This document shows, piece after piece, positions 2,044 through 35,300 of a DNA stretch of 37,122 bases. The notes beneath the pieces are model-generated. The model searched no databases. It saw only the letters and a list, made by a program, of their open reading frames with translations, and was not told the origin of the DNA. Each line of letters begins with the position of its first letter. Positions within the stretch are counted from its first letter, which is position 1. A program made the translations under genes and the position numbers. The stretch comes from Chiloscyllium plagiosum (Eukaryota), in NCBI RefSeq assembly GCF_004010195.1, contig NC_057757.1:9340423-9377544 (forward strand), read 5' to 3'.

Positions 2044-2075
2044 ATGGCTCTCTCTGCCTTCCACTCTCTCTGTCA
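1915..2075. repeat. (TC)n-type microsatellite (a smaller one at about 1200-1290)
   Basis: Runs of TCTCTC interrupted by TG/AC. Confidence 0.95.
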
Positions 2076-2251
2076 TAACAGGCACTGGTTCACTCCATGG
2101 GATGTACCTGGCAGTTGTTTGTTGTTAATGGGAAGCCTCAGTGTGGAGGGTGCTGCTCCCATGCAGAGAGACTCGTTTCAGTGATAGTTGTGGGGGACCC
2201 CGCGAGCTGCCCAGTGGGGGACAGTGTTTAATTTCCACACTCTGTTCACAG

Positions 2252-2344
2252 GGAGGCGATGATTGTGAAGCGATCCGGGGGTCACCGAATTCCTGGTCTA
2301 AACTGCTGCGGGCGACATAAAGTCTGCTATCAGTGGTCAAAGAG
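2252..2344 (+). CDS. PLD2: PLD2 exon (PH domain start): [31 protein letters not shown]
   Basis: Acceptor ttcacag|G, donor AG|gtcagt, 93 nt. Contains the di-cysteine palmitoylation motif known from PLD1/2 PH domains. Confidence 0.95.
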
Positions 2345-8300: not shown

Positions 8301-11300
8301 TCCTCATCCCTCCAAACCGCTCTCTGCAATCTATTGCGCGTCCTTCCTGATGTTCCTCATCCCTCCAAACATCTCTCTGCAATCTATTGCACATCCTTCC
8401 TGATGTTCCTCATCACTCCAAACCGCTCTCTGCAATCTATTGCGGGTCCTTCCTGATGTTCCTCATCCCTCCAAATATCTCTCTGCAATCTATTGCACAT
8501 CCTTCCTGATGTTCCTCATCCCTCCAAACATCTCTCTGCAATCTATTGCGCGTCCTTCCTGATGTTCCTCATCCCTCCAAATATCTCTCTGCAATCTATT
8601 GTACGTCCTTCCTGATGCTTCCTGCACTTGAGGGTCTGCAGGAGAAAGTTAAAAACGGATTTTACTGTTAGCAAAACAGATTTTAGCAAAGAAACCCAAA
8701 CATGTAAATGGAAAGCAGGAATTTTCAGCAGTGCTTCGCCTGAGGCCCACTGAAGATGTTACCTAGTATGGTGACGAAACGTCTGGAAATGAGCCTTCCA
8801 GCTCAGCGAGCAAACCTACATCCAAACCCGCAACCTGAGCTACAAATCTTCTCAAAACTCGCTAAGATTTGAGCTTCTTTGTGATTCTGGCTGTCTATTT
8901 ATTCATGGAATTTGTGCATCGCTAAGGGGGCGGTGTCGAGCTGGAGGGTTGGATCTGGGAATGGGGTTGGGAGTGGTGGCGCGGGTAATGAGGAAACTGG
9001 TGAAGTCGTTGTTGATGCCATGTGGTTGGACGATCCCAAGGTGGAACTCCACATCTACTTCACCGGTTTCCAAATCTCCCCTCGCCCAACCTCATCCCAG
9101 ATCTAACCCTCCAACCCAGCACCACCCTCTTGACCTGTCCTACCTGTCCACCTTCCTTCCCACCTATCCACTCCACCCTCTCCTCTGACCAATCACCATC
9201 ACCCTCCCACCTACATTCACCTATTCCCTTCCCCCAGCCCCACCTCCATCCCCCTATTTATCTCTCAGCCCCCTTCTCCTCCACATTATTCATGAAGGGC
9301 TTATTCCCCAAACGTTGACTCTCCTGCTCCTCGGATGCTGCCCGACCTACTGTGCTTTTCCAGCCTTTTCCTGCTCCGGCATCTGCCGTCCATGCTTTCT
9401 CCTGACAATGCAACCTCCCTGACCCTTCGTCCTGATCTTAATGCCCTCCCGTCCTGCCCAGGGTCACCAGTTGTCCTTCTGTGAGTCATGTGGAGCAGTG
9501 ATTTTCTGGATTATGCTGACTCCCATCGCTTCTCATTTGTAGGCTGAGTCCCGAGATCCACCTCAAGAGACCTGCCAGGAGCAACTACTGGAGACTGGAC
9601 AGGCTTCTGAAGCGTAAGGCAGTGAGTAAGGCCCCGGGCAAAGGGACGCAAGGGCTTTACCATTTTAGCGCGGGTGCACGGGTTCAGAGATTTTCAGAAT
9701 GTGGGCATTGTTCAGTCCAGTGTTCGTCCCTCGTTCCTAGTCACCTGCCAACTGAGTGGCTTGTGAGAGCCATTTTAGAGGTCAGTTAAGAGTCAGCCAT
9801 GTTGCAGCTCAGCGTATCGGCCCAGACTGGGTAAGGAGGGAAGATTGCCCTCCCTGAAGGGCATGAGTGAACCAGATGGGTTTTCACGGTCAGTCGAGGA
9901 TAGTCTCATTGTCACCGGCGCTAAAGCAAGCCTTCAGTTACAGATTTATTCCAATGGCATGAATGGGATTCAATCCAGTGTCTCCAAAACGTGATCCCCA
10001 GGATTACTCACCCATCGTCCCTGGAGGACTTGATTGGAGAAATCGGGGCGTCGTTGTTGGAGAAGAAGAGGGGATTTGTTGGAGGTATTCCTGACAAGAG
10101 TAGAGAGAGAGAGAGAGAGACACAGTTTCCATTATTGAGGTGACCAAGAGCCAGAGGGCCCCTGATTTAAGGTAGTCATCAAAATAACATTGATAGGATG
10201 GAAGAATGTCTGTGTGCAGCACACACACTCTTGGCCCTGATCTCCAGCATCTGCAGTCCTCACCACAGGCCCTGGAATACACTGCCTGAATCTGGGGGTG
10301 GGGGGGGGGGTGGGAACAGACTCAGTTCAGAGGGGCATTAGATCTGCAGAGATAAAATTGCAAAGTTGAGTTGGGGGTGGTGTCAAAGAGCTGCTTTTTT
10401 CAAGGGCTAGCACGAGCATGACCTGCTGAGTGGCCTCTTGGCATGCGTTAACAGTTCCAGAACTCAAGGGGCTTTGGAGCAAGGGGACAGTCGTGGGATT
10501 GGCAATGGTGCTGTTGTTAGACATTGTTTTGTTTCTCTCCTGTGCCCTAAAGCTGAGGGCAACACTAAGTGTTGTCCTGACGATACAATTCTGCCGATGG
10601 AACAGGCGAGTACCCCCAGCGGTTTCAGAAGAAGGATCCCCCTTCCCGTGTTTGAGTTTATTTGAGAGGTTTCGCCCTAATACAAACCTACGCGGGGCTT
10701 ACAAGAAGTCAACTCAGACTGAGACTTCACCCTGATGAGAGAGGTCCCTGCCAACGGGAGTCTCGAATCTTATTGGTGGGCAGCACATATGTCCCTCTCT
10801 AGCAGCCCCTGGGTTGGCAGGAGGTCAGAGTGCCCACAGAGCGAGCTCCCAGCAGAAAGCAGTACTCAGCAGGTCTGGCTGAGTCTGGATGAGTGCTGTT
10901 GAGCTCCCTGGCCTCCCTGACCTCCCTGGCCTCCCTGGCCTCCCTGGCCTCCCTGGCCTCCCTGGCCTCCCTGACCTCCCTGACCTCTCTGACCTCTCTG
11001 ACCTCCCTGGCCTCACTGACCTCCCTGGCCTCACTGACCTCACTGACCTCCCTGGCCTCACTGACCTCCCTGGCCTCACTGACCTCCCTGGCCTCACTGA
11101 CCTCACTGGCCTCACTGACCTCACTGACCTCCCTGACCTCACTGACCTCACTGACCTCCCTGGCCTCACTGACCTCACTGGCCTCACTGACCTCACTGAC
11201 CTCCCTTGCCTCACTGACCTCACTGACCTCCCGTCAGCAGTTAGCAAGGTCAAGGGGCATTAGCGATGGACAGGGTTAGAGAAAGGGTGGAGGGTGAGGT

Positions 11301-14300
11301 GGGTAGTAGAAGAGATGAGGGGATTGTGGCACAGCGCAAGAGGAAGTGGCACTGGCACAAAACAAAGGCATCCCCGCTGAAAGGGTAGGGAGGGCAGGTT
11401 TCCTTCCCCTGTGGACAGTGATGAAGCAGATGGGTTTACAATGTAACTGTTCGTAGCCACTTCAATTAAAAACAGCGTAAAGGTGTCTGGAATGAGCAGG
11501 TCACACTGAAACAGAACATGGGAGCAGGAGTAGGCCATTCAGCTCTTTGACCTGCTGTTCCATTCAGTATGCTGATGGCTAATTATCCAACTCAGTGCCG
11601 TGTTCCCATTCTCTCCCCCCTTTGAACCCTTTAGCCCGAAGGACAATGGCTCTCTGCTCTTTGCAGTGAATACCCAGGCTCACCGTTCTCTGGGTGAAGA
11701 CCTTCAGAGAGTCAGAGAGATGGACAGCAGAGAAACGGACCCTTCGGTCCAACTGGTCCATGCTAACCAGATAGCCAAACCTCATTGAGTCCCATTTGTC
11801 AGCATTTGGCCCATATCCCTCCAAACCCTTCCTATTCATATACCCATCCAAATNNNNNNNNNNNNNNNNNNNNNNNNNNNNNNNNNNNNNNNNNNNNNNN
11901 NNNNNNNNNNNNNNNNNNNNNNNNNNNNNNNNNNNNNNNNNNNNNNNNNNNNNNNNNNNNNNNNNNNNNNNNNNNNNNNNNNNNNNNNNNNNNNNNNNNN
12001 NNNNNNNNNNNNNNTTTCACAACATCTTTCCGATAGGAAGGAGACCAGAATTGCATGCAATATCCCAACAGTGGCCTAACCAATGTCCTGTACCTCCACA
12101 ACATGACCTCCCAACTCCTGTACTCAATACTCTAACCGATAAAGGAAAGCATACCAAACGCCGCCTTCACTATCCTATCGACTTTCCTCCCCTCAGTTCT
12201 AAATGGGCTATCCTATAAGCTCAGAGTATGTCTCCCTCCCCTCATTCCAGACTCCGCAGTCATCGAGAATATCCTTTTAACGTTTACCCTGCCTAATCTT
12301 GAGAGTTTTACAGGTTTCTGAGAGAGCTCCCCTCATTCTATAAACTCATCTTTGGTTATGCGGAAAGATTAGACAGACTGGGCTTGTTACCTCGCGTGTT
12401 GAGGAAGATGAGGGGGTGACTTGATTTGAAGTTATAATGTCAAACCTGTTCAGGATAAGATGGACATGGGACGGTCTCTGTTGTGGAGGTGGAGTGGGGG
12501 AGCGCTTAGAGGTCAGAAACTCCAGAACCGGGGTTGGGGGGGGATTTGGTTTCCCCTCACGGTTATCTTTGGAACTCTCTGGTTCGCGGGGAGGTGGGGA
12601 GGGTAACAGGCGATGAGTCGTTGAATTTGTTTGAGGTGACTTGGATCGATTCTGGTCAGGCTGAGGTATCGGGGGAGGGGGTGGGGTGGGGCTGATGGAT
12701 AGGAATGTGGAATCGAAAGCACAAACTGATTGGCCACGTGCGTATTGAGTGGCGGAGCAGGATGGAAGGGCTGAATGGCCTTTTTCTGCTCCTAATTTGA
12801 AGGGGTGTGTGAGCTGGAGAAGCTCAACAGGTCCAGCAGCATCTGTGGTGAGAAAACCAGATGTTAATGTTTTGAGTCTGGGATAATTCTTCAGAACTAT
12901 GTTTCCCCAGCATCTGCAAGACTTTGTGTTCCCATGCAATAATAATTTCCTGATGACCACCCCTGAGACTCCCTTTCAATTCCACAATTCCATAGTTGAG
13001 TTTTAATCTCACCAGCCATTGGAGTGGAATTTGAGCTCAATAGCATTTGCCTCGGGTCATTTATTATTGCAAATTCCTCACACGAATGGTCCCGGGACGG
13101 GGAACTTCAGTGGCAAGGATAGATTGGAGAGGTCAGGACTGTTCCCCTTAGAGGAAGAAGAGATTTGATCAAAGTGCTCAACGTCACGAGGAATGTGGAC
13201 AGCGTTGATAGGCAGGGCCTGCTCCTGTTGGAGGAAGGCTTAAAGCCAGGAGGCACTTGAGGAAGAGAATGAAGATAACGCTGAGTGAGATGAAGGGTTT
13301 GCGCCCTCTGAAGCCTCTAGAGTGTCTCCAGCATCTTCGATCTTTGTTTCCGATGTCGGGAAGGAGATTCCACACGGAATCTCTGCAGATTTGAAGGTGC
13401 TGTCCTGAACCTGACTGACCCTTGGTCACAGAAAGTTAATCCAACCCTTAACTTTCGTCAGTCGGAAGAGAAACAGTTAACATTTCAATCCAATGTGACT
13501 CTGGTTTCTGTCCCCACAGACACTCGGAGACCCGCGGGTTTCCCCACAGACACTCGGAGACCCGCGGGTTTCCCCACAGACACTCGGACACCCGCGGGTT
13601 TCACAGCACTTGCTGCTTTAGTTGAAGCTCTCCAGCATCTGGAGTATTTTGTTTTGATTATTGATTATTCTCTCTCTCTGTCTCTCTGTCTGTCTCTCTC
13701 CCTGTCTCTCTGTGTCTCTCCCTGTCTCTCTGTCTCTGTCTCTCTCCCTGTCTCTCTGTCTCTCTCCCTGTCTCTCTGTCTCTGTCTCTCTCCCTGTCTC
13801 TCTGTCTCTCTCCCTGTTTCCCTGTCTCTGTCTCTCCCCCTGTCTCCCTCTCTCTCTCTCTTCCCCTCCTCCTCCCCCTCCCTGTCTCCAGGAACAGGGT
13901 GTGAAGATATTTGTGCTGTTGTATAAAGAGGTGGAGCTTGCCTTGGGCATTAACAGCGGATACAGCAAGCGAACGTTGACAGCGCTGCACTCAAATATCA
14001 CGGTAGAGTCTCTTCCGAGTGTGCGACGGTTTGTGGTATGTGAGCTCATTGACCCTCTGCACAGTAGGTTTCTCCATCACAGTTTCGACTGCTGTGAGAG
14101 TTACAGCCCAAAATGGGCAAGTCTCATTCCAACATGGAGAGAGCCCCTTCAGCCCTTGGCCGAGAGTGAGCTCTCAGTGAGTCTGTCAGGGCTAAAGCTA
14201 TTCATGTCTTGTGGAACTCTGCTTTAAGGACTGGATGAGGGTGCACATGTGTAGCTCCTGATTCTCGGATTATGGAGCTCTTGCTGTTCCCACTTTGGGA

Positions 14301-17300
14301 ACATCTTTACAACCAGAAGGCACAGGAGCAGAAACTAGGCCATTCAGCCCATCAAGCCTGCTTCACCATTCAATCATGGCTGGTAAGGTTCTCAACCCCA
14401 TTTTTCTGCTGTCTCCCTGTAACCCTGGATCCCCTTGGTACTCAAGAACCTATCCATCTCCATCTTAAATATACCCAATGACCTGGCCCCCACAGCCTTC
14501 TGTGGCAGTGAATGGCCATAGATTGCCCACTCTCTGGCTGAAGACGTTTCTCCTTATCTCTGTTTGAAAAGTTCTTCCCTTTACTCTAAGGCTGTGCCCG
14601 CAGGACCGGGTCTCTCCTCCCAATGGGAAACATCTTCCCAACATCTTTAAGCCATGCCGTCCAACCCCCACTGTGTACCTGGCCCTCACAGACAGCTCAT
14701 TCGCAATGTTCTTAGAGTTGTGTTTCTCTGTCTGTTATCTGTCTCAAGTCCAGAAACTTCCCTGCAAGCCGAAGTGCTCTCTTTCTCTCGCTCGCTCTCT
14801 CTCTCTCTCTCGCTCTCTCCCTCTTGCGATCTCTCGCTCACTTTCTTGGGCTCTGTCTCTCGCTGTCTGTCTCTCGCTCGCGCTGTCACTCGCTCTCTCA
14901 CTCTCTTTCGCGTGCTCTCTCACTCTCGCTCGCACTCTCTTGCTCTGTCTCTTGCTCTGTCTCTCGCTCGCTCTCTCTCGCTTGCTGTCTCTCGTGCTTT
15001 CTTGATCTCTCGCAGTCTTGCTCTCGCTCTCGCTCGCACTCCCATGTTCTCGCTCGCTCGCTCGCTCTCTCTCGCACTCTCTTTCGCGCTCTCATTCTCG
15101 TTCGCGCTCTCTCTCTCTCTCTCTCTCACACTCTGTTTGTTCCCCTCGAGCAGGTGATGAGGCACCCGGATCATGTCTCCTCCACAGTGTTGCTCTGGGC
15201 CCACCATGAGAAACTGGTCGTCATCGATCAATCGTTGGCCTTCCTGGGAGGGTTGGACCTGGCCTACGGCAGGTGGGACGACCAGGACTATCGCCTGACC
15301 GACCTGGAAGCTCCCCAATCTCAGCCGGTACGTGCAGCTGCCTCTTTCGTGGTTGATCTGTTGTCCTCCGTCCTTTTCACGTTTCCCCATCCCCCTCTCC
15401 TCACCGCCTGTCCTCTTCATCGTCACCAACTTTGTATTTTTTGTTCCCCGCTTGTCCATGGGATGTGTCTTTTATGGGGTTGAAAGGGCTAATGCCAAGC
15501 AGTGTCACACGCACCAATTTCGATAGGTTGATATACAGAACAACCTCGATTATCTGAACAAGGCAGGTTGGGAATATTTTGTTTGGACAACTGATTGTTT
15601 GGACAACTCATCGGGGTTCCGGTGGCAGTGGCAATAGCAGGATCAGGGTTGCCATGGCGATCCTGTTCCTGTTCCCACCGCCAGCCCAGGCTGCCTGCTC
15701 TTTCTGTGCTTTTATTTAAATTTAATAAACTTTTTTCGGGACCTTGTGATCTTGTTTGGATAATCTGAAATTCGGATAATTGATGTTCGGATAACAGAGG
15801 TTGTTCTGTATCCTCCGTTTCGGTCTCCTTATCTGAGGAAGGATGTTCTGGTGAAGGAGGGGATTGTACCAAAGGTTGACCAGATGATACCTGGGGTGAC
15901 AGGACAGATGTATAAACAGACTCTCCATCAGTTAGGACTATATTCGCCGGCGTTTTTGAAAAATGAGGTGGGGGGTGGGGGAACCTCCTAGAAATCTATA
16001 AAATTCTAACAGGACCAGACAGGGTAAATACATTAAGGATGTCCCCAATGTCCCCCAGAACCTGGGGGTCGCAGTTTAAGGATGTAGGGTGGGCCATTTT
16101 GGACACAGATGAGGAGAAATATCTTCCCCCAGAGAGTGAAGAGCCTGTGGAACTCTCTTCCACAGGAAGCAGTTGAGGCCAAAGCATCTCACGTTTTTAA
16201 GAAGGTTCCTCGGGCTGAAGGGATTAAAGAGCATGGGGAGATTGGCAGGAACAGAGCACCGAGTTGGAGGATATAGAATGGTGATGAAGGCTGAATGGCC
16301 TCCTCTTGTTCTTGCGTTGCTATAAACTTGGGGTCTCGAAGGAGTGCAGCCTACACTCCACCTCATTCTGTCCGTAACTGGATGCGGCCTGAAAAGTTCC
16401 TTCCCCAGAGGGCATTCGTGAGCCAGATGGGTTTGTGTGGCCAATCGATGATTGCTTTCACTGTAATGGCCTTATCAATCCCAGAGTTTTTAATGAATTT
16501 TACTGGTTTGAGCCCGTCATCCCAAAGTGGGTTTCCAGTCCAGTCACACCATCGTTACGACAGCATTTAGACAGACGCATGAACAGACAGGGAATAGAGG
16601 GATAGCTGCCTATTACTGTCCTCTGCTCTATTTTCTGTCATTGGGTCACACGTACGCATCCCCCAAAAACACAGAGTAGCTCACAAGCTGTTATAACTTG
16701 GGGGATATCCTAAAATAATGAGGCTTACCCTGTCACAAGCAGCAGTTAAATGATCAGTTAGCCTCTCCCACTGATGAGACTTCTATTCACTTAAATAAGA
16801 GTCGATGGAAGCAGTCAGTAGGAACCATCTCCGCTGTATACAGGTTTTTTAATAAGTAGCAATACACTTAAGGTTACTTTAAAGTTGCAAAATGTTCAGA
16901 TAATATGTTTAAACGATAGCACTTTGCATAAATATTTCTGAAAATAGTGGCTGCAGGATTTTTTACCACATCCAGCCAGGAAGGCAAGGCAGGGCCTCAG
17001 TTTAATTTCTCTGAAAGATTGACCCCCCCCCCCTCCCCCAACAGTGCAGCACTCTCTCAGCACTGACCCTCTGACAGTGCGGCACTCCCTCAGCACTGAC
17101 CCTCTGACAGTGCGGCACTCCCTCAGCACTGACCCTCTGACAGTGCGGCACTCCCTCAGCACTGACCCTCTGACAGTGCGGCACTCCCTCAGCAGTGGCA
17201 CTTCAAATGTCTGCCTGCATAATGAGTTCACATTTCGGAGATTCAAGACTCTTCCTGATGTCGAGGGGAGAGGATATTCCTGTTGACCATCTCGTTAATT

Positions 17301-20300
17301 GACGTTGACGATTTGCTACATGTAGGTTTGTAATCACAGCGAAGAGGAGCGTCTTGAGGAACCTGAGGAGGAGAAGGGAATACCACTCGAGGAGGTGAAG
17401 GAATGGCGTTCTCGCTGCCGGGCTGACTCAACAGACTGTAACGCGGCTGGGCAATTCTGGCTTGGAAAAGACTATTGTAACTTCATTCAGAAGGACTGGG
17501 TTGAGCTGGACAAGCCTTTTGAAGGTAAATTGAGCTTCCTCAGGTTTAGAATTTAACCATCCAGAACCCTCCCTGTGCTTCAGGATAAGCAGGTAGCTGT
17601 TACCATGCTGTTACCTCAGAGATAATCTCTGGAGTTCCTGTTGAGTTTATACACTGACCATGAGAAGAGAATGCAGAGCTAATTAATACACACTATTCCC
17701 AGGGTTATCAGTAAAGTATAAGAGGCCAACTGAATGACTCTAACGCCGTCTGGGACAAAGGTAATTCATATCAGGTTTATCAGTAATGGATGTAGGCTTG
17801 CTCACTGAGCTGGAAGGTTCATTTCCAGATGTTTCGTCACCCTAGTAGGTAACATCTTCAGTGGGCCTAGAGGCAAAGCACTGTACATGATTCCTACTTT
17901 CTATTTAGATGTTTGGGTTTCTTTGGGTTGGTGATGTCATTTCCTGTGGTGATGTCATTTCCTGTTCTTTTTCTCAGGGGGTGATAGATGGGGTCTAACT
18001 CGATGTGTTTGTTGATAGAGTTCTGGTTGGAATGCCATGCTTCTAGGAATTCTCGTGCGTGTCCCTGGCTTGTCCTAGGATGGATGTGTTGTCCCAGTCG
18101 AAGTGGTGTCCTTCCTCATCCGGATGTAAGGATACTAGTGAGAGAGGGTCATTTTGTTTTGTGGCTAGTTGGTGTTCATGTATCCTGGTGGCTAGTTTTC
18201 TGTCTGTTTGTCCAATGTAGTGTTTGTTACAGTCCTTGCACGGTATTTTGTAAATGCCGTTAGCTGGAAAATGAACCTTCCAGCTCAGCGAGCAAACCCA
18301 CGTCCAGAACTCAACCTGAGCTACAAATCTTCTCAAAACTCGCGTATTCAGAGTAGTTTAAAGTGGGTTCACATAACTAATTGACGGGATTATCATATTT
18401 TGAACAGTCCAGACCTATATCTATTAGATTTTAAAAGAATGAAGTCCATGTAAACAGCATCATCGGCTTTTTCCTTCATTAATCATCTTCATCACCTCCT
18501 CAAATAACCCAATCAAGTTAGGTATGCACGACCCCCCACATAAAGCCATGTTGTCTATCACGAATAAGTCCGTTTGTCTCTAAACGCATATAGATCTTGT
18601 CCCTGAGAATCTTTTCCAATAATTTCCCAACCACCAACATGAGGTTCACACAGGCCTGCAATGTCCTGGATTATTCCGTGCTACCTTCTTAAACAATGGG
18701 ACAACATTGGCTATTCTCCTGTCCTCTGGGATCTCTCCAGTGGCCAAAGAGGATCCGAAGATGTCCATCCATACTCCAGCAACTTGTTCTCTCGCCTCCC
18801 TCAATGTCCCGGGACCCAGGGACTTAAAAAGCATTAAGGTTGATAAGACGCACAACACCTCTTCCTTTTTAATGGCGACTTGACTGAGAAATTCCACACC
18901 CTCTTCCCTGAGATCATTCTCCACCAATTCCTTGTGAGATTCTGAGGCGACTTGGTCAGGTGGATGTTGAAGGGATATTTCCCTCATGGGAGAGACTTTG
19001 TCCAGATATCAGAGTTTGAAAGATTAGAATTCGAATAAAAATTGGATGTTGCTGTATCCAAATACAGGAGTACAGTAAAAAGCGCACAGTGTGGTCATTC
19101 TCTGACGTCATCTTGGCTACAAAATCCCGAATTTAAAAAAAAAAGCTAAGAAACAAAAATCAGAATTTTAATAAAAGCAGGAGTATCAAATGTAGGTGGA
19201 TGTAGAAAGATTATTTCCCTCTGGCTATAGGATCTGGAGCAAGGGGACACAATATAAGAAGAAAGCAAAAATAATGACCGCCTGTGCGAGAATGAAGGAT
19301 GGGTGTGGCAAGTAACACGCGCCTTGGATGACCAGGAATGTTATGACCTTGGTCAAAAAGAAAATGGAAGCACGTGTCAGGTCTAGGAGGATGGGAAATG
19401 GCGAAGCCCTGAAAGTGCATAAGGAAAGTGGGAAAGAACTTAAACGAGGAATTGGAGAGGTTGAAAGGGTCATGAAAAGTTGTTAGCACACAGGATGAAG
19501 GAGAATCCCAAAGCGCTTTATACAAAAGGAAAAGGGTTGGCCCACTCGGGGACAAAAGAAGGAATCTGTGCCTGAAGGCAGAAGAGTTGGTGAGGTCCGA
19601 AATGAATACTTTGTGTCGGTATTCACCAAAGAGAAGGAATTGGTGGAGAATGATCCCAGGGAAGGGGGTGTGGAATTTCTCAGTCAAGTCGCCATTAAAA
19701 AGGAAGAGGTGTTGTGCGTCTTAAAAAGTATTAAGGCTGATAAGTCCCTGGGTCCCAGGACATTGAGGGAGGCGAGAGAACAAGTTGCTGGAGTATGGAT
19801 GGACATCTTCGGATCCTCTTTGGCCACTGGAGAGATCCCAGAGGACAGGAGAATAGCCAATGTTGTCCCATTGTTTAAGAAGGTAGCACGGAATAATCCA
19901 GGACATTGCAGGCCTGTGTGAACCTCATGTCGGTGGTCGGGAAATTATTGGAAAAGATTCTCGGGGACAAGATCTCGGGGACAAGAAACAAACGGACTGA
20001 TTAGTGATGGTCGGCGTGGTTTTGTGCAGGGAAGCTTGTGCCTCACTAACTTAATCGGGTTTTTTGAGGAGGTGATGAAGATGATTGATGAGGGAAAAGC
20101 AGATGAGGCTGTTTACATGGATTTCAGTAAAACCTCCTGACAAGGTCCCTCATGGCAGACTGGGACAGAAGGTGAAGTCACATGGTATCGGGGGTGAGCT
20201 GGCAAGGTGGATACAGAACTGGCTTAGTCACAGGAGGCAGAGGGTAACGGTGGAAGGATGCTTTTGGGAACGGAGGGTTGTGACTCGTGGTTTGATTAGA

Positions 20301-23300: not shown

Positions 23301-26300
23301 AATCCCATTTTCCCCTCAACCTGCAGAGCCTCCCAATTTCCCAGACTAACATCCTTACCCTTCCATCGAAGTCCCAGCAGGCTCTTGTCCAGCCCAGTAT
23401 TGGCAACCTCCTCCCTCCCTCTCTCTGTCAACTCTGGCCTTGTGGCTGTCCCCCTCCCTCCCACCCTGATTCCCACTGCTCCCATTGGTGGCTGTGCCTT
23501 CAGCTGACTAGGCCCTGAGCTCTGACATTCCCTCCTGAAACCTCTGCACCTCGCTGACTGTTCAATATCATGAGCTGGACACAGTAGATAGCGAGAAGCT
23601 GTTCCCACTTGGTAAAAGAACAAGAATGGGAGGGGCAGAGATTGAAAGAGATGTGCAAACGAAACAGCGGTGATATGAGAGAAAACGTTTTCACCCAATG
23701 AGTAAAGAACAGCAGAGCCCAGGAACGGGCCTGTTGGCCCAGTCAGCCTCCCCTCTGACACATGAGGCCTTTCTAACCTTTTGCCTGGACATGGTCCTTT
23801 CCCTCTATCCCCTGCCGAATCATATATTTGTCAAGATGCCTCTGAAACATTTATTATTGTATCTGCTTCTGCTACCCCCTCTGGCACTTACCATCCTCTG
23901 TGTGAAATAAAACCTGCTCTCACATCTCCTTTAAACTTACCCCCGTTTTATCTTAAACCTACGTCCTCTCGTAACTGGCATTTCTATCCTGGGGAAAAAC
24001 ACTCCAGCTTCCCATTCTACCCATAATTTCCGTAAATTTCCATCATGTCGTCCCCCGTCCTTCGATGTTCAAGTGAGAACAGATCACATTTGTCGGGTCT
24101 CTCCCCGTAGCTAACACCCTCCAAACCAGGCAACATCCTGGCACACCGTTTCTGTACCCTCTCCAGAGACTCCACATCCTTCTGATAGTGTGGTGACCAG
24201 AACTGGACACAATATTCCAAATGTGGCTGAACAACAGCTGCGATATGAGTTACCAATTTTTAAACGCTACTCTGACTGATCAAGGCAAGCGTGCCATCTG
24301 CCTTCTCCATTTGCGTTGCCATTTTCAGGGAACTCTGGACCTGTACGCCTAGTTCCCTCTGTATGTTGATTCTACTCTGAGTTCTGCCATTGTACATCCC
24401 TCCCGCATTAGATCTCCCAAGATGCATCATTTCACATTTGTCCAGATTAAACTCCATCTGCCACTTCTCTGCCCTAGCCTCCAGCTTATTTAGATCCTGA
24501 TGAATCCTCTGGCAATCCTCCTCGCTATCTACAGCTCCCCCCAGTCTTTGTGTCATCCACAAGCTTTCTAATCAGGCCACCTACATTCCCTCCAAATCAT
24601 TGACATATATTATAGACCACAAGGGTCCCAGCACTGATCCCTGCGGAATACCGTCAGTCACAGATCGTCAATCAGAAATATTCTCTTCCACTGCAGCTAC
24701 TCTGTTTTCTATGGCTAAGCCATATCCATCTCCCCAGTGCATTGTGGATCCCATGTGACTTCACCTTCTGTGTCACCCTGACATGGAGGGCCTTGTCAAA
24801 GGGCCTGCTAACATCGACGTAGACAACATCAGCCGCCCTGCCCTCATCAACCGTCTTCCTCACTTTCTCAAAAAAACCCAACACGTTTGTGAAACACAAT
24901 CCTCCCCACACAAAGCCTGTCGCTAATAAGTCCATACTTTTCAAATGTGAGGAAAACCTATCCCTAAGAATATTCACCAATAATTTCCCTATCACTGACA
25001 GAAGATTGACTTGCCTGTAATTTCCCGGATTATCCCTGCTGTCTTTCTTAAACAGCATTGGCTATTCTCCAGGCACCTCTCCTGTGACTGAAGAGGATAC
25101 AAAGATTTCATACAGGGCCCCCAGCAAGTTCCTCACCTGCCTCCCACTGCATTCTGGGTTAGATCTCATCAGGTCTACCTTAATGCTTTTCAAAACACCC
25201 AACACCACCACTATTTTTATATTGACATATCCCAGAAAAGCAACAAAATCCTCTCTGGACTCACCGTCCATCATAAGCTCCCCCTTTTGTGACGACCGAT
25301 GCAGTGTATTTGTTAAGGATTCACCCATTTCTGGCTCCATGCTTACATTTCCTCTTTTATCCTTGAATGGACCTACCCTTTCCAGAACTACCCTCTGTCT
25401 CCTTATATATGGATAAGACACTTCGGGATTTTCCTTAATCCTGTTTGCTAAAGGCAAGTCATGGCCCCTTTTATCCCTCCAAATTCCTTGTTTGAGTCCT
25501 TTCCTGCTATCCTTGCACTTTGCGAGGGCTCTGTCTCTCTTTAGTTTGTGTATACTTCCCTTTTTCTATTGGACTCAGCTCTCAAATTCTCTTGTCATCC
25601 AAAGTTCCCAAATCTCGCCAGTCTTATCCTCCATTTTCACAGGAACATGTTGGTCCTCAACTCTAATTGACTGACCTTTAAAAGATTCCTACTTGCCAGA
25701 TGTGGGGGATTTCCCCTCAAACAGCTGCCCCAATCTACATTCCCCAGTTCTTGCCGATACTGTGTTCATTCGCCATCCCCTAATTTAATACTTTCACCCA
25801 AGGACTACTCTTATCCTTATCCATAAATAACTTAAAACTTACAGAATTATGGTCACTGTTCCCGAAATGCACCCCTACTGAGACTTCAACCACTTGGCCG
25901 GACTCATTCCCCAATCCCAGGTCTCACATGTCCCCTTCCTGAGTTGGACTATTCACATATTGTTTCAAAAAACCATCCTGGACACACCAAACAACTTAAC
26001 CCTCATCTAAGTCCTAGTCAATATACAGGAAGTTAAAATCAGAAAAACCTGTGGTTTTCACATTTTCCATAATCTAGCCACATATCTATTCCTCTATCTC
26101 CTGCTGGCTGTTGGGAAGCCTGTAGTACAATCCCTTCAAAGTGATTGCATCCTTCCTGTTCCTGAGCTCTACCCATAAGGCCTTGCTGGATGAGCCGTCC
26201 AAGATGTCCTCCCTCAGCACAGCTGTAATATTCTCCCTTATCATAATGCAACTCCCCTCTCTCTTTTATATGTCTATCACACCTAAAACATTGATATCCC

Positions 26301-29300
26301 AGAACGCTAAGCTGGCCAGTCTTGTACCTCTCTCAGCAAAGACTCTCAAAGCTACAACATCATAGTTACATGTATTAATCCAAACTCAAAGTTAATTTTC
26401 ATTACCCGTCCTACTCCTCATATGAAAACAAATACACCTCAGAGCGCCAGTCATTCAGTAACCTCTCCCTGTCTCATAGCCTTTGTCTTAGACTCCTCCT
26501 TGGTCATTTTACTTGCTGAGCCACTGCTCTGGTTCCAGCCCCCTGCCCACACTTGTTTAAACACGCCCAAGTGGCACGAGCAAGCTCCCTGTCGGAATAT
26601 CGCTGCCCCTCTAGTTTAGGTACAAACCATCCTTTTGTGTCCCACCTACTCTAGATGATCTCCCAATGGGATTTCCCCTCAAACAGCTGCCCCAATTTAC
26701 GTTCCCCAGTTCCTGCTGATATTGTGTTCATTAGCCATCCCCTAATTTAATACTTTCACCCAAGGACTACTCTTATCCTTATCCATAAATAACTTAAAAC
26801 TTACAGAATTATGGTCACTGATTCCGAAATGCGCCCCTACTGAGACTTCAACCACCTGCCCGGACTCATTCCCCAATACCAGGTCTCACATGTCCCCTTC
26901 CTGAGTTGGACTATTCACATATTGTTTCAAAAAACCATCCTGGATACACCAAACAACTTAACCCTCATTTAAGTCCCAGTCAATATACAGGAAGTTAAAA
27001 TCACCCACCAGGATAACCTGTGGTTTTCACATTTTCCATAATCTAGCCACATATCTATTCCTCTATCTCCAACTGGCTGTTGGGAAGCCTGATGTGATTA
27101 GATTAGATTCCCCACAGTGTGGAAACAGGCCCTTCGGCCCAACAAGTCCACACTTACCCTCCAAAAAGTAACCCACCCAGACCCATTTCCCTCTGACTAA
27201 TACACCTAAGCACTATGGGTAATTTCCCATTGCCAATTCACCTGACCTGCACATCTTTGGATTGTGGGAGGAAGCCAGAGCACCTGGAGACACTGGGAGA
27301 ATGTGCAAACTCCACACAGACGGTCACCCAAGGCTGGAATCGAACCTGGGAGCCTGGTGCTGTGAGGCAGCAGTGCTAACCACTGAGCCACCGTGCCATC
27401 CCAGTTGAAACTTTATTGCTGGGACAGCACAGCAGGTCAGGCAGCATCCAGGGAACAGGAGATTCGACGTTTCGGGCACAGGCCCTTCTTCCTGGGCCTG
27501 TGCCCGAAACGTCGAATCTCCTGTTCCCTGGATGCTGCCTGACCTGCTGTGCTGTCCCAGCAATAAAGTTTCAACTTTGATCTCCAGCATCTGCAGACCT
27601 TACTTTCTCCACCGTGCCATCCCATCAAAGTGATTGCATCCTTCCTGTTCCTGAGCTCTACCCATAAGGCCTTGCTGGCTGAGCCCTCCAAGATGTCCTC
27701 CTTCCGTACAGCTGTAATATTCTCCCTTATCGTGATGCAATTCCCCTCTCTCTTTTATATTGTTCTCTATCACACCTGAATGTTGGTTAGGCCACTTTTG
27801 GAATATTGCGTGCAATTCTTGTCTCCTTCCTATCGGAAAGGTGTTGTGAAACTTGAAAGGGTTCAGAAAAGATTTACAAGGATGTTGGCAGGGTTGGAGG
27901 GTTTGAGTGATTAGGAGAGGCTGAACAGGCTGGGGCTGTTTTCCCTGGAGTGTCGGAGGCTGAGGGGTGACCTTATAGAGGTTTACAAAATCATGAGGGG
28001 CATGGATAGGGTAAATAGGCAAAGTCTTTTCCCTGGGGTGGGGGGAATCCAGAACTAGAGGACATAGGCTTAGGGTGAGAGGGGAAAGATATAAAAGCTG
28101 TGCTGTACATCGCTATGACTGTCTGCACATTAATGATTTGGATACAAATGTATGTGGATTGTTCAGTAAGTTTGGAGATGACACACAAGTTGGTGGTGTG
28201 AGACGTACAGATTTAGGCTACAGATGGACACTACAATGGCAGCTGGAATTTAATCCTGCAAATAGAGTAGATTCAAATTGGAGGACTAATGAGGTAAGGG
28301 AGCACACATTCCACAGTAAAACCCCAGAAAGTACAGAGGGGCCTTGCTGGACATGACCGTAGATTTTTGAAAACAGTGGGACAGGTCGATTAAGCTGATT
28401 ACGAAGGTATCTGGGATACTTGCCTTTATTAGTCAAGGCATTGAATACAAGAGTAGGGAGCTGTACCTAACGTTAATGAGAGTACAGATGGAGCACTGTG
28501 TGCAGTTCCGGTCGCCGTATAACAGGAAGGATGTGACTGTATTGGAGACGGTGCAGAGAGGGTCACCGGGATGTTGCCTGGGATGGAACATTCCAGCGAT
28601 GGAAGAGGAACTGGGTGGGCTCAGTTAACTTCCTCCCAGCAGAGGGGGCTGAGAGGGCAACTGATAGAGGGGTATAAAATTATAACAGGCACAGATAGAA
28701 TTAGACTTTTCACAGAGGGGCCAGTTACCCGGGAATGCTGATTTAAGGTGAAGGGCAAGAGGTTTTGAGAGAATTTAAGGAGAATTTATTTTATCAGGAT
28801 GGTAGTGGGTAAGTGGAAATCTCTGAGGTATCCAAAGCATTCAGATGAGCAATTGAAACAGCATAGCGGGCAAGGTTACAGGCCAAATGTTGGGAAATGG
28901 GATTGGGGGAGATAGGCACATGTTGACTAGCATGGACACAATGGGTGGAAGGGCCTCTTCCAGGCTGCAGTGCTTAATGACTGTGTTTTCCATGGAGAAA
29001 GGAGAACAACCCCGGAACACTGAGGAACGGGAATCCTTTATCCATTTGTGGGAAGCTTGGTGAGCCCCTTTCTCACGGGTCGTGGTGACAATCCCAGAAA
29101 ATGGACCAGTTGCAGGATACTCCTGTTCCCTGTCAGTCTGGCACAGGTTCAGCCTGCTTCGGTTGATGCAGTGGACAATACGTCGGAAGGAATTGTGGGA
29201 AATGTTTGCAACCCAGACATTGTTTTCATTTTTCAGACCGTGAAGCCAAAGTACAAACCTTCCTGCTTCCCTTACCTGCTGCCGAAATCTCACACCACAG

Positions 29301-32300
29301 CCGACAATCTTCCATTCCTCATCCCGGGCTGTGTCCCAGCTAACGTTCAGGTGAGTATCTCAAACAGGAAGTGTCCTTGCAGCATATCCCCTGCTCCTAT
29401 CTGTCTATGTAACTGAGGGGCAACCCATTGTTCCTGAAGCTTCTCATTGCTCGCTCATCAGGACACCATGCAAGAGTGCCAAATTCCAAAGTACGTTCTT
29501 CCCACAGGAAGGAAGGGGGTGTGGCAGATTGATTCTGCTTGGCTGAGGTACTGCCATGGAGAAAGCAAAGGGGCACGATAGGTTCCTGGATAATTCAAAA
29601 TGGCACAAGGCCTTGGGTGTATTTCTTGCGTGTGCAGAGGATGGGCCCCTGTAGATAAGGGCCAGTGGTCCATAAGATGAACTCTGTGCTCTTTTTGTCA
29701 CTGTCCAGGAGGGTGTGGGAGATGTTGATTTCTCCACGATAATGCCAGCACCAATCAGAGTTGACTTGTCAGCCAATTAGCATTCTTTCTTCCTGTAGGA
29801 TAAATTGCTGTGATGGTTTGAAATTTGACTACAGTCAACAGCTTGAGACAACATCAGGGCAACAAGGTGTCTCAGTGGTTGGCACTGCTGCCTCACTGCA
29901 CCAGGGACCATGTTCTTGGGGGGCGCTATTTGTGTGGAGTTTGTGTGTTCTGCCCATTTCCGTCAGGTATTCCGGTTCCCTCTCTCAATTCCCACAGGAA
30001 GGTTATCAGAAATTACTGCAGGACCTTGATCAACTGCGGAAGTGGGCTGAGAAATGGCAAATGGATATAGATAAGTGTGAGGTCTTGCATTTTGGAAAGT
30101 CAAATCAAGGTAGGAGTTTCATGGTGAATGGGAGGGCCTTAAGGTGCAGGTGCAGGGTTCTCTGAAAGTGGAGTCCCAGGTAGGCAGGGCAGGGAAGTTG
30201 TATATCTCCTTCTGCCATAGAACTGACTTCAATGCCTTGAGGCTTTCCCTCATGCACTATTTCTCCAGTCACATGTAAACAGAGATATCTTATCTTACTG
30301 TTCCTACTTTCATTAGCACATAGTGATGTCAGAACTGTGATCTATAACATGACTAAGTAATGCATCAGTTGCCTGCTGACGGACCTGTGGACTGAAGGTT
30401 GAGAAATGTGTCAAAGTCTTCCTGCATTTAACCAAGAAAAGTTCAAAGTAGCTGAAACCTTGACAGCAATTCTGAAAAATGGTCCAAAGATTTGGCGAGA
30501 GGAGTGTTTAGAGTTCATTCATATTTTCCTCTGGGAGCCAAAGACTGTACTGGCATATTTCTTCAGACAGACTGAACTAAGAGACCCTACCCCCATATAT
30601 ATAACTGACATTGTAAGGAAATCCTTCATGGACCATTAAAGTGAATCAGTCCTGTTTCTTTCTGATCTTGATTTTGAAAATATTTTGGTGTGCCCATAGG
30701 AATACCCATAGCTCAAATGTATAGAGTTCCATCAATGCAACTGTACAAACAATAATGAAGCATGCAGTATTACTTTAGATAGCTCAGCCACAAGGAAGAC
30801 TTCTGAACTTTTCTTCTGAAGCAACACTAAAACACTGTATTTAAAAATTACAACTATTCAGCAGAGGAGGTGATGCATAGTGCTAATGTCACTGTATAAG
30901 AAATCCAGAGCTCAAGACAATTAGATTAGATTAGATTACTCACAGTGTAGAAACAGGCCCTTCGGCCCAACAAGTCCACACCGACCCGCCGAAGCGCACC
31001 CACCCAGACCCATTCCCCTACATTTACCGCTGCACCTAACACTACGGGCAATTTTTAGCATGGCCAATTCACCTAACCTGCACATCTTTGAACTGTGGGA
31101 GGAAACCGGAGCACCCGGAGGAAACCCACACAGACACGGGGAGAATGTGCAAACTCCACACAGTCAGTTACCTGAGGCGGGAATTGAACCCGGGTGTCTG
31201 GCACTGTGAGGCAGCAGTGCTAACCACTGTGCCACCGTGAGAAGGATAGAGTGGGCCTGTAAGGTACAAGCAGGGTAAGCTGCTCACTGAATGAAAGGAT
31301 TGAACGAGGTACTGAAGGAATATTTTGCTTCTGTCCTTCTCAAATTAGAATGGGCTAGTTGAAAACATGGCCGTTGACCAACTGAAGAGTACAGTGACAG
31401 ATGAAGAGGAGGTGCTGAAAACACTAGCAGCACTCCAAGTAGAGAGGTCGCCTGGATCAAGTGGGGTGTATCTGAGATTACTGAGAGAGTTAAAGGAACA
31501 AATTGCAGAGCAGTTGACAGATATTTTCCAGATCTGTCTGATTACAGGGTCAGTCCCGGGTACGTGGAGGATTGTAAAAGTGACACTGTTGCTTTAGAAA
31601 GGGATGAAGGATAACCCAGGAAACTATCGACCTGTCAGCTTGACATCAGTAGTGGGCAAGTTGATGGAGGCCATAATACAGGCTAAGGTAAATATGCACT
31701 GAGAGAAAAATAAGTTAATATGAGACAGTCAACATGACTTTGTCAAGGGCAAGTCACGTCTGACAAATTCAATTGAGTATTTGATGAGGTCACCCATGGA
31801 GTGTATCATTCAGAGAATCCCTGCAGTGTGGAAGCAGGCCATTCGGCCCATCCAGTCCTCAACGGCCCTCCGAACAGCATCCCATCCAGGCCCACCCCCA
31901 CCAACCAATCCCAATAACTCTGCATTTCCCACGGCTAATCCACCGAGCCCGCACGACCCTGGACACTATGGGCAATTTCCCATGACCAATTCACCCTAAC
32001 CTGCACATCTTTGGACTGTGGGAGGAAACTGGAGCACCCGGAGGAATCCCGCACAGACACGGGGAGAACGTGCAAACTCCACACAGTCAGTTGCCCGAGG
32101 CTGGAATCAAACCCAGGTCCCTGGCGCTGTGAGGCAGTAGTGCTAACCACTGAGGGTAATGCTGTGAATGTTATATATTTGGACTTTCAGAAAAGCACAT
32201 GATGCAGTTCCACGTGGCCCTGCTCATTCCTGAAGAAGGGCCTGTGCCCGAAACGTCGAATCTCCTGTTCCCTGGATGCTGCCTGACCTGCTGTGCTGTT

Positions 32301-35300
32301 CCAGCAATAAAGTTTCAACTTTGATCTCCAGCATCTGCAGACCTCACTTTCTCCACGTGACAGATTGGTTAACAAATTAGAAATGTTTGGGATTGATGGG
32401 TCCTTGGCAGCATGGATGAGAAGTTGGCAAAAGGAAGGGTAGGTGTAGATGGGCATTTCTCAGACTGGAGATGAGTTGAAAGTGATGTTCCCCAGGGATT
32501 GGTGTGGGGACCCTTGCTTTGTCTGATTTATATCAGTGATGTGGGGGAGATGGGTGTCGAGCGCAAAATCCCTAACGTGCAGATGATACTGAGCTGGGGA
32601 GAATACTGAATTGGGGGGGATGATGCTAATCGACTTCAAAGGGGCAATGACAAGTTGGTCAAACGGTGGGTTTCAATGTGGAGAAATGTGAGGTAATGCA
32701 ATTTGGCTGAAGAAACACTGAGAGACGTTACAGGTTCAATGGGACAACTCTGAGGGGAGTACAGGGATCTCGGGGTTCACGTGCATGGTTCTGTGAAGGT
32801 GGCCAGGCAAGTTGAAACAGTCGTTATAAGGCCTTGGGTTCATAAATAGAGGCATAGAGTACAAAAGCTAGGAGCTGATGCTCCATCTGTACAAATCATT
32901 GGTCAGGCCACATTTGGAGTATTGTGTTCAGTTCTGGCTAACTTTATCTGAGGAAGGATGTTCGTGCCCTGGAGAGTTCAAAAGAGATTTATTGGAATGG
33001 TACCAGGGATGAAGGATTTTCGATACAAGGAAAGGTTAGGGAGATCGGGCTTATCCTTCTTGGACAAAGTCAGAAGTCAGAGCTTAAAAATGTGTTGCTG
33101 GAAAAGCGCAGCAGGTCAGGCAGCATCAAAGAAGGGCTTATGCCCGAAACGTCGATTCTCCTGCTCCTTTGACCTGCTGCGCTTTTCCAGCAACACATTT
33201 TTAAGCTCTGATCTCCAGCATCCGCAGTCCTCACTTTCTCCAAAGTCAGATGGCGCACAACACCGTATGACGACAGCTGAATCGCACGTGAAGGGGATGA
33301 CCTCTAATCTGATTAATTGCGGCAGAGAGAGATAATTACACAAGAAAGCAGAGCAGATTCTGCAAGGACCACAGATCCTGAACCCACTCAATTTGATCCA
33401 CAACACGCAATGCTGAGAGACTGCGCTGTGCACATCTCTCGCACACTCCTCAATCATCTCCTATACCAGCTCGACAGCAGATGCCGTGACCTTGAAATCG
33501 AGTTAGAGCCGACATTTTTCGCAAAAGGGAACTCTGCCTCAGTTAATCGGTTCGTATGCCAACCCTTCGCTTGCTCGTCAGCTGTTGACGCTGCACTCAC
33601 ACCATTGGACACTTCTGATCAACAGCAGAGACTTGTTGTTCAGCCTGTCGTCACTCTGCTCACACCATTTGTACGCAGTTTTGACACTCTTTCATTACCG
33701 GGATTTATCTAGCACTGTTCCCTCCGCTGATAAATTCTGTGCCTGTGCGCTTCCCTCCACTTCACCTGACAAAGGGGCAGCGCTCCGAAAGCTTGTGATT
33801 TCAACCAAAACCAATTGGACCGTAGCCTGGTGTCATGTGACTTTTGACCTTGTCCAGCCCAGTCCAACACCCGCGCCTCGACATCATGACTTATTCTTTT
33901 TGGAACAGAGTAGATTAGGAGGTGACCTTATTGAGGTATTCAAAATTGTGAGCAATTTTGACAGGGTAAAGAATATTCCGTTTCCTCTGATTGGTGTGTC
34001 CAGAGTTGAAGCTTTTCAGCAAGAGAGCTAGGAGTGAGATGAGGAAACTTTACTTTGAGAGTTGTTAGGTTTTGGAATGCACGGCCTGGGAGAGTGGTGG
34101 AGTCAGACTCCATCGGAGGTTTCGAAAGAGAGTTGTGTGTATATTTGAAAGTGATGAAGTTAGAGGGCTGTGGAGATGGGGATGAGGAGCTCTTTCAGAA
34201 GCTGGTATGGACACGATGGGTCGAATAGCCTCCTCCTGTACTGTAAGACTCCGTGATACTAATTAGAAGATAGAGGGACAGTGTTCAAGACTGGAGGACG
34301 CCACGGGGAAGGAGAAAGGCAAAATGGAGAAACTCTCAACTTGTCCATCCTTGTTCACTGGAGCCAATGGCTCAAGGTTCTCAATGGCTCCTTCAGGCCT
34401 CTATGTAACAAGACAACGGGCCCAGGGGCAAGGCCTGGAGTTCGGGCACAGACCAGCCATGGTTTTGTTGAATGTCGGAACAGGCTAAAGGGGCTGAAAG
34501 GCCACTCCTGTTTTTCTGTTAAGGTAGCAGTGTGGAAGGTAGTTTTCAGTCGAATGAAATCCCGCGTCCAGCAATAACCAAATGCAGTTCTGAAGAAGTA
34601 CGATTCTGTGTTTTCTCTCCAGATGTGCTGCCGGGCGAGCGGAATTTCTCCAACAATTTCTGTTTCTCTTTTTTTTGACGAAACACTCTGTTTTTGTGAA
34701 ACCGATTGAAGGGCATTAGTACAAGGTACAAGGAGAATTAGTAACAGTCCAAAGATCTTTCATATCCATCAAATGAGCCCTCGATTGAACGTAGAGAGAG
34801 GGAGAAGCTGCTTCCTCTGGTGGGAATGGAAATTTCCGGAACAAGGGGGCCCAGAGTTAAAGCCTGAGCTAGCTCTTGCAGGGCTGGTGTCAGGAACGCC
34901 CACAAAAAGGGGAGCGGAAATCTGGATCTCTCTCCCTTGATCCACCTGCATCCCATCCCAATTCCTGTCTGTGGCTCAGTTGGAAACTTGGAGTCTGCTG
35001 ACAGACCGTGTCTGGAATTGGGATTAAAGCGGACAAAGTCTGGCATGATCGGAATTGCGCAGTCCAAAGGTTTGAAGGGGCAAAGGGCCTCCCTCCGTCA
35101 ATACACTCCGTATGGGATGGGGATTGCTGGCTGTGTCTACCTTCCCCGTTGATATGAGGTTTATACACAGCTCCTACCTGTGCTGTGTATCGAAGGATTC
35201 ACAATTATTTTTAGATTGTGAATGTTGGACTCCTCACAGAAAACAGTATTAAATATTGAAATTTTTGTCATGAGCACTTCCTTTTTCAGGTTCTCCGGTC

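Follow-up and report, generated by a model that had tools for sequence, protein, structure and literature searches.

The hammerhead motifs in the introns of bamboo shark PLD2 are very probably passive 5'-truncated pLTR insertions of endonuclease-bearing Penelope-like retrotransposons, which fall into three or more unrelated families (A; B together with the related D; and C) and probably stay uncut in the PLD2 pre-mRNA. The motifs are genuine, mostly decayed, and of an already known kind. Every hammerhead site in the window, the whole 37,122-nt stretch of DNA analyzed here, lies in an intron of the PLD2 orthologue (Table 1). An earlier sequence-only reading of the window had proposed both the gene and the intronic placement, and tblastn, tree, and splice-site analysis bear this out. 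A PDB search preferred PLD1 on one exon, and the database name reads "D1-like"; PLD1 identity was rejected because the protein groups with PLD2 in a 24-row tree (quick tree, support 100). The copies probably do not matter to PLD2 itself.

Table 1 Features of the window
Feature	Position	Strand	Description
PLD2 orthologue, 12 exons	2253–36700	+	tblastn, tree, splice sites; some exon edges approximate
Family A solo pLTR stub with tail	8688–8864	+	between 10-bp target-site duplications (TSDs) 8678–8687 and 8865–8874, 1 mismatch
Family A complete minimal hammerhead	8747–8786	+	3-bp stem I, 6-bp stem II, ACGU palindrome, GUC triplet; cleavage predicted after 8783; in sense orientation to PLD2
Older family B copy	8924–9364	.	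upstream, 3'-UTR-like sequence as an inverted pair, followed by decayed hammerhead 9286–9322
Family D stub	12790–12897	-	stem II and GAAA missing, first box retained
Family A hammerhead 3' of GIY-YIG remnant	17825–17864	-	ACAU in place of the palindrome; antisense to PLD2
C-terminal GIY-YIG endonuclease remnant of Penelope-like ORF	17954–18264	-	one frameshift; Pfam, tblastn
Inverted 5'-truncated family A arm	18264–18343	+	36-bp tail present, absent from opposite arm (ends 17787); begins at or one base from predicted cut site
Family B head-to-head palindrome	27404–27608	.	both arms cut off in or after core; tail on + arm only; exact 16-bp TSD 27388–27403, 27609–27624
Family B solo stub	32219–32351	+	10-bp TSDs 32209–32218, 32352–32361, 1 mismatch
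Family B complete minimal hammerhead	32226–32261	+	4-bp stem I, 4-bp stem II, ACGU palindrome, GUC triplet; cleavage predicted after 32257; in sense orientation to PLD2
Family B head-to-head insertion	33077–33240	.	+ arm begins within core (33129), - arm begins 3' of hammerhead; tail on + arm only; 12-bp TSD 33065–33076, 33241–33252, 1 mismatch
Family C stub	33740–33890	+	edges approximate, from read depth; hammerhead 33762–33798
Second D-like stub	34587–34650	+	stem II and GAAA deleted; absent from the sequence-only list

Two of eight named sites are complete minimal hammerheads

The window was scanned with a strict descriptor (CUGANGA-N-stemII-GAAA-N15.2:N16.2-UH plus stem I), with 100 block-wise dinucleotide shuffles as control. 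The scan returned two matches in the window and none in the 100 shuffles. These two, at 8747 (A) and 32226 (B), are the complete minimal hammerheads among the eight named sites. When one core mismatch is tolerated, the 33762 site (C) joins them, and the three matches compare with three in total across the 100 shuffles.

The CUGANGA and GAAA boxes, together with the UH triplet, are intact at 8747, 17825, and 32226, but not in the copies at 33762, 12863, 9290, 27494, and 33130. Specifically, the 33762 copy reads CUGACAA and has lost catalytic G8 (33771); 12863 (D) has AAAA in place of GAAA and no stem II; the 27494 and 33130 copies begin after or within the core; and 9290 is decayed in both boxes. 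The 17825 copy keeps the core and both stems, and its ACAU instead of ACGU creates a C15.2-A16.2 mismatch. In all A, B, and C matches, a single unpaired base separates positions 9 and 10.1, and the first stem II pair is G-C (G10.1-C11.1). The palindromic 15.2-16.2 element is ACGU at 8747 and 32226 and AGCU at 33762.

Direct sequence check confirmed the coordinates and stem I strands given by the sequence-only reading, and also its extra base after CUGANGA in the A, B, and C matches. Its claim that one architecture recurs in all families stands for A and B and fails for D and for the 33762 copy of C; likewise, the palindromic remnant of stem III holds at 8747, 32226, and 33762, and is absent from 17825. 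The description of the helices as covarying was overstated. The strands are complementary inside each family, but no compensatory, double-sided change is found between window copies of one family, and alignment fails between the tails of A, B, and C. Among the 40 of 253 variant rows listed for the reads, which are unphased, there is one one-sided G-U/A-U change, in family C, and no compensatory change. Alignment A1 consists of 52 of 100 loci picked for stem I pairing, which makes its pair counts circular, and they were not used as evidence. Model R1, whose top match is 32226–32261 (45 bits), was skewed towards family B by its search pattern and missed family C.

Chance matching to a loose hammerhead pattern is a scarcely credible source of the motifs. 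Most of the 30 CUGANGA heptamers in the window lack hammerhead context, D and 9290 on their own would fail any descriptor, and no hammerhead is present among the six Rfam matches at E<=10; a miss by Rfam is expected for motifs without stem III. For A, B, and C, however, chance origin is refuted by the shuffle test, by repeated families with TSDs, by the GIY-YIG link, and by recovery of the core at family level in reads. The same kind of pattern scan gave no match in either of two scans of viral contigs, one match in prokaryote genomes, rejected as chance, with no CUGANGA box or stem II before it, and 121 loci in metagenomes, none of them shark-like, with one 43-bp blastn match to the window.

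Family A is linked to a GIY-YIG endonuclease

The 17825 hammerhead lies ~90 bp 3' of the end of the GIY-YIG remnant, on the same strand. This linkage had been noticed from the letters, and Pfam and tblastn substantiate it. The remnant matches Pfam GIY-YIG with 22.8 bits (cut-off 22.6) and the shark RT+GIY-YIG proteins P0124 and P0126 at 67–80% (tblastn); its homologues contain RVT_1 and GIY-YIG, and read-through protein P0123 aligns across the family A hammerhead region. As read from these alignments, the family A pLTR with its hammerhead sits downstream of an ORF for RT plus a GIY-YIG domain at its C terminus, i.e., in an EN+ Penelope-like element.

Protein search found no relatives of P0134, upstream of B, or of P0135, upstream of C; both are short stretches or perhaps do not code for protein. 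No protein link to a PLE ORF was found for D. With nothing returned by the protein searches for B and C, a resemblance of the 9046–8990 peptide to the end of a Neptune endonuclease is unsupported.

Insertion anatomy and family relationships

Head-to-head inversion with a one-sided tail of 30–36 bp is seen at three loci, 17787–18343 (A), 27404–27608 (B), and 33077–33240 (B). TSDs were found at four of nine loci searched and not at the other five; none was found for the inverted family A unit. This anatomy was not seen for C or D. Head-to-head arms, one-sided tails, and TSDs have been described for PLEs (PMC8557442, PMC3846280). Compared with the inverted-pLTR units of EN+ PLEs (Arkhipova et al. 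2013, PMC3846280; Craig et al. 2021, PMC8557442), which share the truncated head-to-head arm, the tail on one arm, and TSDs, the units here are much shorter (B, 130–210 bp), and the longest TSD measures 16 bp, against ~8–10 bp there.

The D tail is identical to the family B tail at 22 of 31 positions, a score reached by none of 1000 shuffles. The count of four ribozyme families was overstated: D shares its tail with B and has no intact copy here. In family C, public reads recover the core and a Watson-Crick stem II, and the core is intact in 280 of 311 RNA reads, i.e., most copies keep G8. Separately, 224 RNA reads carry a poly(A) run directly behind the family C hammerhead.

The stubs probably arose as follows. 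The element protein would nick the target and start reverse transcription 60–100 nt 3' of the hammerhead, at either of two start sites that the one-sided tails place 30–36 nt apart; this step has been demonstrated for Anolis Poseidon (PMC11167929). Synthesis would often halt close to the hammerhead, and another arm may join in inverted orientation, a process that would yield the observed 130–210-bp stubs between TSDs. Judging from the literature, a hammerhead without its own stem III would need a partner of its own family to fold, probably aided by the element protein. Inserted copies would then decay, often at CpG, as seen for 17825 and 33762.

Read depth puts family B at ~10^4 to 10^5 or more copies, a crude estimate from public reads that counts decayed copies too, in support of the high genome-wide abundance suspected earlier. 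Copy numbers and the limits of the families are indirect here. We regard it as possible, though rather unlikely, that B and C spread as short non-autonomous units of their own (SINE-like or retrozyme-like), whose transcription would begin immediately 5' of the hammerhead and which Penelope protein would mobilize in trans, and not as random truncations of long elements. In one public run, read depth where the family C hammerhead begins on its 5' side climbs from 889 to 101,518, a rise of ~100-fold, flanks upstream of family B turn heterogeneous ~10 nt before the core (agreement 0.41–0.44), and the 32226 and 27.4-kb copies are 98.9% identical across 89 bp. The edge is, however, accounted for equally well if templates start, or RT stops, at the hammerhead, and longer copies with upstream sequence are present (8924–9364, 17787–18264). 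Moreover, retrozymes are defined by arrays in a preprint (bioRxiv 10.64898/2026.07.22.740005), and no tandem head-to-tail hammerhead units occur among 20 tandem-repeat rows or in self-comparison of the window. Such short units would concern the template only and are compatible with Penelope origin.

Probable lack of cleavage in PLD2 pre-mRNA

The copies most likely do not cut PLD2 pre-mRNA: 23.5 kb separate the two intact sense copies (8747 and 32226), whose stem I strands are incompatible. Computed double-hammerhead homodimers of A and of B are within ~1 kcal/mol of two monomers, and in a computed A+B mix no stem I forms for the A core. The double-hammerhead was never the minimum-energy dimer in any computed case.

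It seems quite improbable that intact 32226 pairs with the half-hammerhead at 33129 and cuts PLD2 pre-mRNA, with some copies active in host RNA. The half-hammerhead is in the same intron, 0.9 kb away, keeps GAAAC-GUC and the 3' strand of stem I, and is exposed in the loop of a long hairpin; the modelled complex costs ~2 kcal/mol over monomers. Stem I, however, would comprise 2+1 bp and a U-U mismatch, and cofolding gives a different minimum. Poor cleavage is reported for min-HHR dimers in PMC4209133, and eight of nine Xenopus dimers did not cleave. No pile-up of read ends was found at any position in a poly(A) single-cell run, a weak test.

Discussion

Minimal hammerheads (min-HHR) in the pLTRs of metazoan Penelope-like elements were described by Cervera and De la Pena (2014, PMC4209133). 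That paper already reports the additional base, and several families within single vertebrate genomes; as far as its accessible text goes, sharks do not appear among the lineages listed. The motifs it describes share with those in the window CUGANGA with one extra base, G10.1-C11.1, a palindromic 15.2-16.2 without further stem III, and a short stem I, and its four emergent min-HHR traits, as given there, are all present at 8747 and 32226. In both, likewise, a genome holds several sequence families, most copies are solo remnants of truncated elements, and opposite-strand pairs turn up occasionally. Family B alone, on the crude estimate that includes decayed copies, probably exceeds the 4,000–9,000 motifs given there for coelacanth and Xenopus. 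Assignment to Penelope-associated minimal type I hammerheads is supported for A (directly, by the protein link), B (insertion anatomy, read depth), and C (family-level reads), while the activity and novelty implied by the sequence-only reading were overstated. A literature search with thin coverage of subscription journals found no publication on shark Penelope hammerheads.

The Anolis carolinensis Poseidon element PAc (Frangieh et al. 2024, PMC11167929) also has a hammerhead in the pLTR and a 30–40-bp optional tail from two RT start sites. For PAc and the window alike, no RNA-seq reads end at the cut site, a weak test for the window. PAc is full length, and its cleavage in vitro needs element protein, whereas the window holds only stubs. 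Non-LTR retrozymes, reported in one cartilaginous fish in the preprint cited above, are likewise type I hammerhead repeats derived from pLTRs; as described there, they are tandem arrays of hammerhead-bearing units, whereas the window copies are dispersed solo or inverted stubs.

A far-fetched extension is that family C pLTRs provide a poly(A) signal that functions 10 nt behind the hammerhead cut site. Shark mRNAs ending in such a copy would then have a conditional ribozyme directly before the tail, and would be uncut as monomers and de-tailed with a partner copy or Penelope protein. This switch would resemble the Clec2 3'-UTR hammerhead, yet, given that same-family copies in introns and UTRs number tens of thousands or more, it would be a transposon-spread RNA-stability switch, dispersed genome-wide.

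The insertions extend a known Penelope feature to the bamboo shark. The two intact motifs and the natural core mutants are ready constructs for asking whether vertebrate minimal hammerheads depend on dimers or on element protein, and their abundance makes sharks a good system for asking what Penelope hammerheads do.

Intact and decayed hammerheads in introns of PLD2

Twelve exons of the host gene were mapped to the + strand at 2253-36700, and an exon peptide (15160-15330) matches, at 100% identity, a protein of Chiloscyllium plagiosum labeled 'phospholipase D1-like' (P0003). In a quick tree of 24 proteins picked among 120 listed matches, the host protein clusters with whale shark, zebra shark, and tetrapod PLD2, separate from PLD1 (support 100). 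The database label of P0003, which lies in the PLD2 clade, therefore appears to be a mislabel; three further elasmobranch 'D1-like' entries likewise fall within this clade. Every named hammerhead site is intronic, confirming both the PLD2 introns and the shark host proposed in the sequence-only reading.

The window contains 30 CUGANGA heptamers. A strict descriptor, following the published minimal hammerhead (min-HHR) and composed once the sites were already known, specifies both boxes, stem II of at least 4 bp, stem I of at least 3 bp, paired 15.2-16.2, and UH. It matches only 8747 (family A) and 32226 (family B), versus no match over 100 shuffles. With one core mismatch permitted, 33762 (family C) joins, and the shuffles give three matches in total per 100. 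An Rfam search of the window returned no hammerhead match. Of the eight named sites, two are complete and six defective. At 17825, the changed palindrome carries a modeled penalty of ~12 kcal/mol to the dimer.

Features mapped in the window
Feature	Position (strand)	Description
Family A hammerhead	8747 (+)	complete
Family A hammerhead	17825 (-)	ACGU replaced by ACAU
Family B hammerhead	32226 (+)	complete
Family B	27494; 33130	sequence starts past or within core
Family B	9290	both boxes decayed
Family C hammerhead	33762 (+)	first box CUGACAA
Family D	12863 (-)	first box and stem I strands alone retained
Second D-like stub	34587	
Head-to-head pairs	17787-18343; 27404-27608; 33077-33240	last 30-36 bp on one arm only
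Dispersed repeat, ~330 bp, six copies	2937-3289; 20277-20609; 27079-27397; 30921-31239; 31810-32154; 36206-36520	70-80% identical; presumably like the shark HE1 SINE
LINE reverse-transcriptase remnants	3818-4390; 11709-12182; 18440-20813; 24110-25521; 27619-27911 (both strands)	taken to be CR1/HER1-like
Inverted ~490-bp duplication in LINE remnant	18440-18933 / 19634-20126	90% identity
Minisatellite	8137-8623	53-bp unit
Minisatellite	10900-11232	9-bp unit
Minisatellite	17041-17194	33-bp unit
Minisatellite	20882-22104	28-bp unit

Reads restore family C and indicate abundance

Reads of one RNA and two DNA runs were aligned to 32200-33900 at 80% likeness. Position 33771, the G8 position of the family C copy, is G in 280 of 311 RNA reads and in 74% (X1) and 51% (X12) of DNA contig depth, restoring CUGACGA; 33776 is A in 306 of 340 reads, which gives stem II Watson-Crick pairs throughout. 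Because the reads restore both core and stem II, family C is a real min-HHR family, and its window copy is probably a CpG-type decay product. For family B, loose read ends before 33131 supply the first box and the absent stem I strand. Among the 40 of 253 variant rows listed, no compensatory change between copies appears.

Summed contig depth for family B is ~6.3 million versus ~11 for single-copy sequence, although depth is not copy number. Dividing depth by up to 31 to allow for contig overlap gives roughly 18,000 to 560,000 copies of family B and 300 to 9,000 of family C, the latter undercounted because the window copy has diverged. The supposition that the families may be very abundant genome-wide is borne out for B within this crude estimate. 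Most genomic copies of B and C start just ahead of the hammerhead. Read depth rises ~100-fold on entering the family C hammerhead from its 5' side (33739-33795), and family B flanks become heterogeneous ~10 nt upstream of the core at 32226. Read ends do not pile up anywhere in 32200-33900, a weak test with fragmented poly(A) single-cell reads; the Anolis element likewise lacks a pile-up in the part of PMC11167929 consulted.

In the RNA run X21, 224 reads stop matching the window copy at 33804; beyond it they carry AAUAAA, then 11 bases followed by an A run (agreement 0.89). Over this bin, hammerhead-sense reads outnumber opposite reads ~6.6:1. The high agreement suggests one dominant source locus. 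The 224 reads must cross the predicted cut site, which lies 10 nt before 33804, and so would be uncut. Another family C copy in the genome may carry a poly(A) site; alternatively, the A run may reflect oligo-dT priming on a genomic A-run at the source locus. AAUAAA is not a general feature behind min-HHRs, occurring in 7 of 100 metagenome motifs and, by an eye count on Fig. S3 of PMC4209133, in ~7 of 56 rows. Our literature search found no paper on AAUAAA or poly(A) behind Penelope hammerheads, and the portions of PMC6765202 and PMC2377424 consulted describe no such arrangement for Penelope.

Family number and Penelope origin

The tails (last 30-36 bp) of A, B, and C align with one another no better than shuffled sequence (112-524 of 1000 equally high). 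The D tail is identical to that of B at 22 of 31 positions (0 of 1000 shuffles as high) and scores weakly against A (3 of 1000) and C (6 of 1000). This gives a count of three families unrelated to one another, in which D figures as a decayed B relative, rather than the minimum of four proposed earlier.

The - strand frame 18261-18058 matches Pfam GIY-YIG, barely over the cut-off, and matches 10 proteins, nine named from sharks. The protein match extends to 17954 with one frameshift, and the alignment of a read-through protein crosses the family A hammerhead, confirming the reported linkage of family A to a GIY-YIG remnant. Of four of these proteins scanned for RVT_1, two score above or just below the cut-off (34.8 and 29.3 bits versus 29.6). 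Head-to-head pairs have a one-sided tail, and target-site duplications (TSDs) of 10-16 bp were found at four of nine loci searched. In the parts of PMC8557442 and PMC3846280 consulted, inverted arms, one-sided tail, and TSDs are the anatomy of endonuclease-bearing Penelope-like elements; PMC11167929, as far as consulted, accounts for the one-sided tail by two reverse-transcription start sites. The Penelope association thus stands for A by protein and for A and B by insertion anatomy, while a search for a protein link of B, C, and D found none.

The inverted family A arm begins at or one base off the predicted cut site (18262-18285), and the junction lengthens a native hairpin by 2-3 bases, as expected of fold-back priming; this is a single case, and other arms begin elsewhere. 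Two shark gene models (P0125 and P0131, MAP3K7 and CUEDC2 isoforms) terminate in Penelope GIY-YIG, through exonisation or annotation artefact. Upstream of C, low-copy repeated DNA contains an open frame of 131 codons (33317-33709) that has no relatives among 1.84 billion representatives.

Modeled folding of the PLD2 copies

In the proposed life cycle, the hammerhead of the terminal repeat (pLTR) would fold solely when two units pair into a double hammerhead, in which the partner provides each core with its cut site and stem I 3' strand. Modeled A and B homodimers lie ~1 kcal/mol or less from two monomers, yet are not the energy minimum, in keeping with low min-HHR activity in vitro (PMC4209133, in part), dependence of Anolis cleavage on protein (PMC11167929, in part), and cleavage of only one of nine Xenopus dimers (bioRxiv 10.64898/2026.07.22.740005, in part). 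In PLD2 pre-mRNA, 23,474 nt separate the intact sense copies, which, as modeled, cannot supply stem I to each other, while the 27.4-kb halves (27404-27608) are trapped in a perfect hairpin. For these reasons the PLD2 copies are probably inert relics. The 27404-27608 region is a near-perfect 174-bp palindrome (predicted -184 kcal/mol) nested in another dispersed repeat, and would make long dsRNA in a PLD2 intron, a possible editing substrate.

Comparison with described min-HHRs

A degenerate core pattern retrieved 121 metagenome loci. Flanks, which lie outside what the pattern specifies, form stem I of at least 3 bp in 60 of 100 distinct matches, versus a mean of 14 and a maximum of 27 with swapped partners. 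A model from 52 of these motifs places seven sites of families A and B at the top in the window, with D tenth (E 0.55), and misses family C. Because family B guided the design of the pattern, this shows only an architecture shared with non-shark motifs. Many of the metagenome contigs have the same minimal architecture with varied but complementary stem I strands; the hammerhead-bearing contigs are probably eukaryotic host DNA.

Sharks were not found in the part of PMC4209133 consulted, and the literature searched yielded no description of Penelope hammerheads from sharks. Penelope is listed among the repeats in the whale shark genome paper, as far as consulted, and the bioRxiv preprint, likewise in part, describes retrozymes from a single cartilaginous fish. 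The consulted part of PMC4209133 lists all architectural traits pointed out from sequence here, and gives 6-8 min-HHR families each for coelacanth and Xenopus. The shark motifs add to this already described kind of min-HHR.
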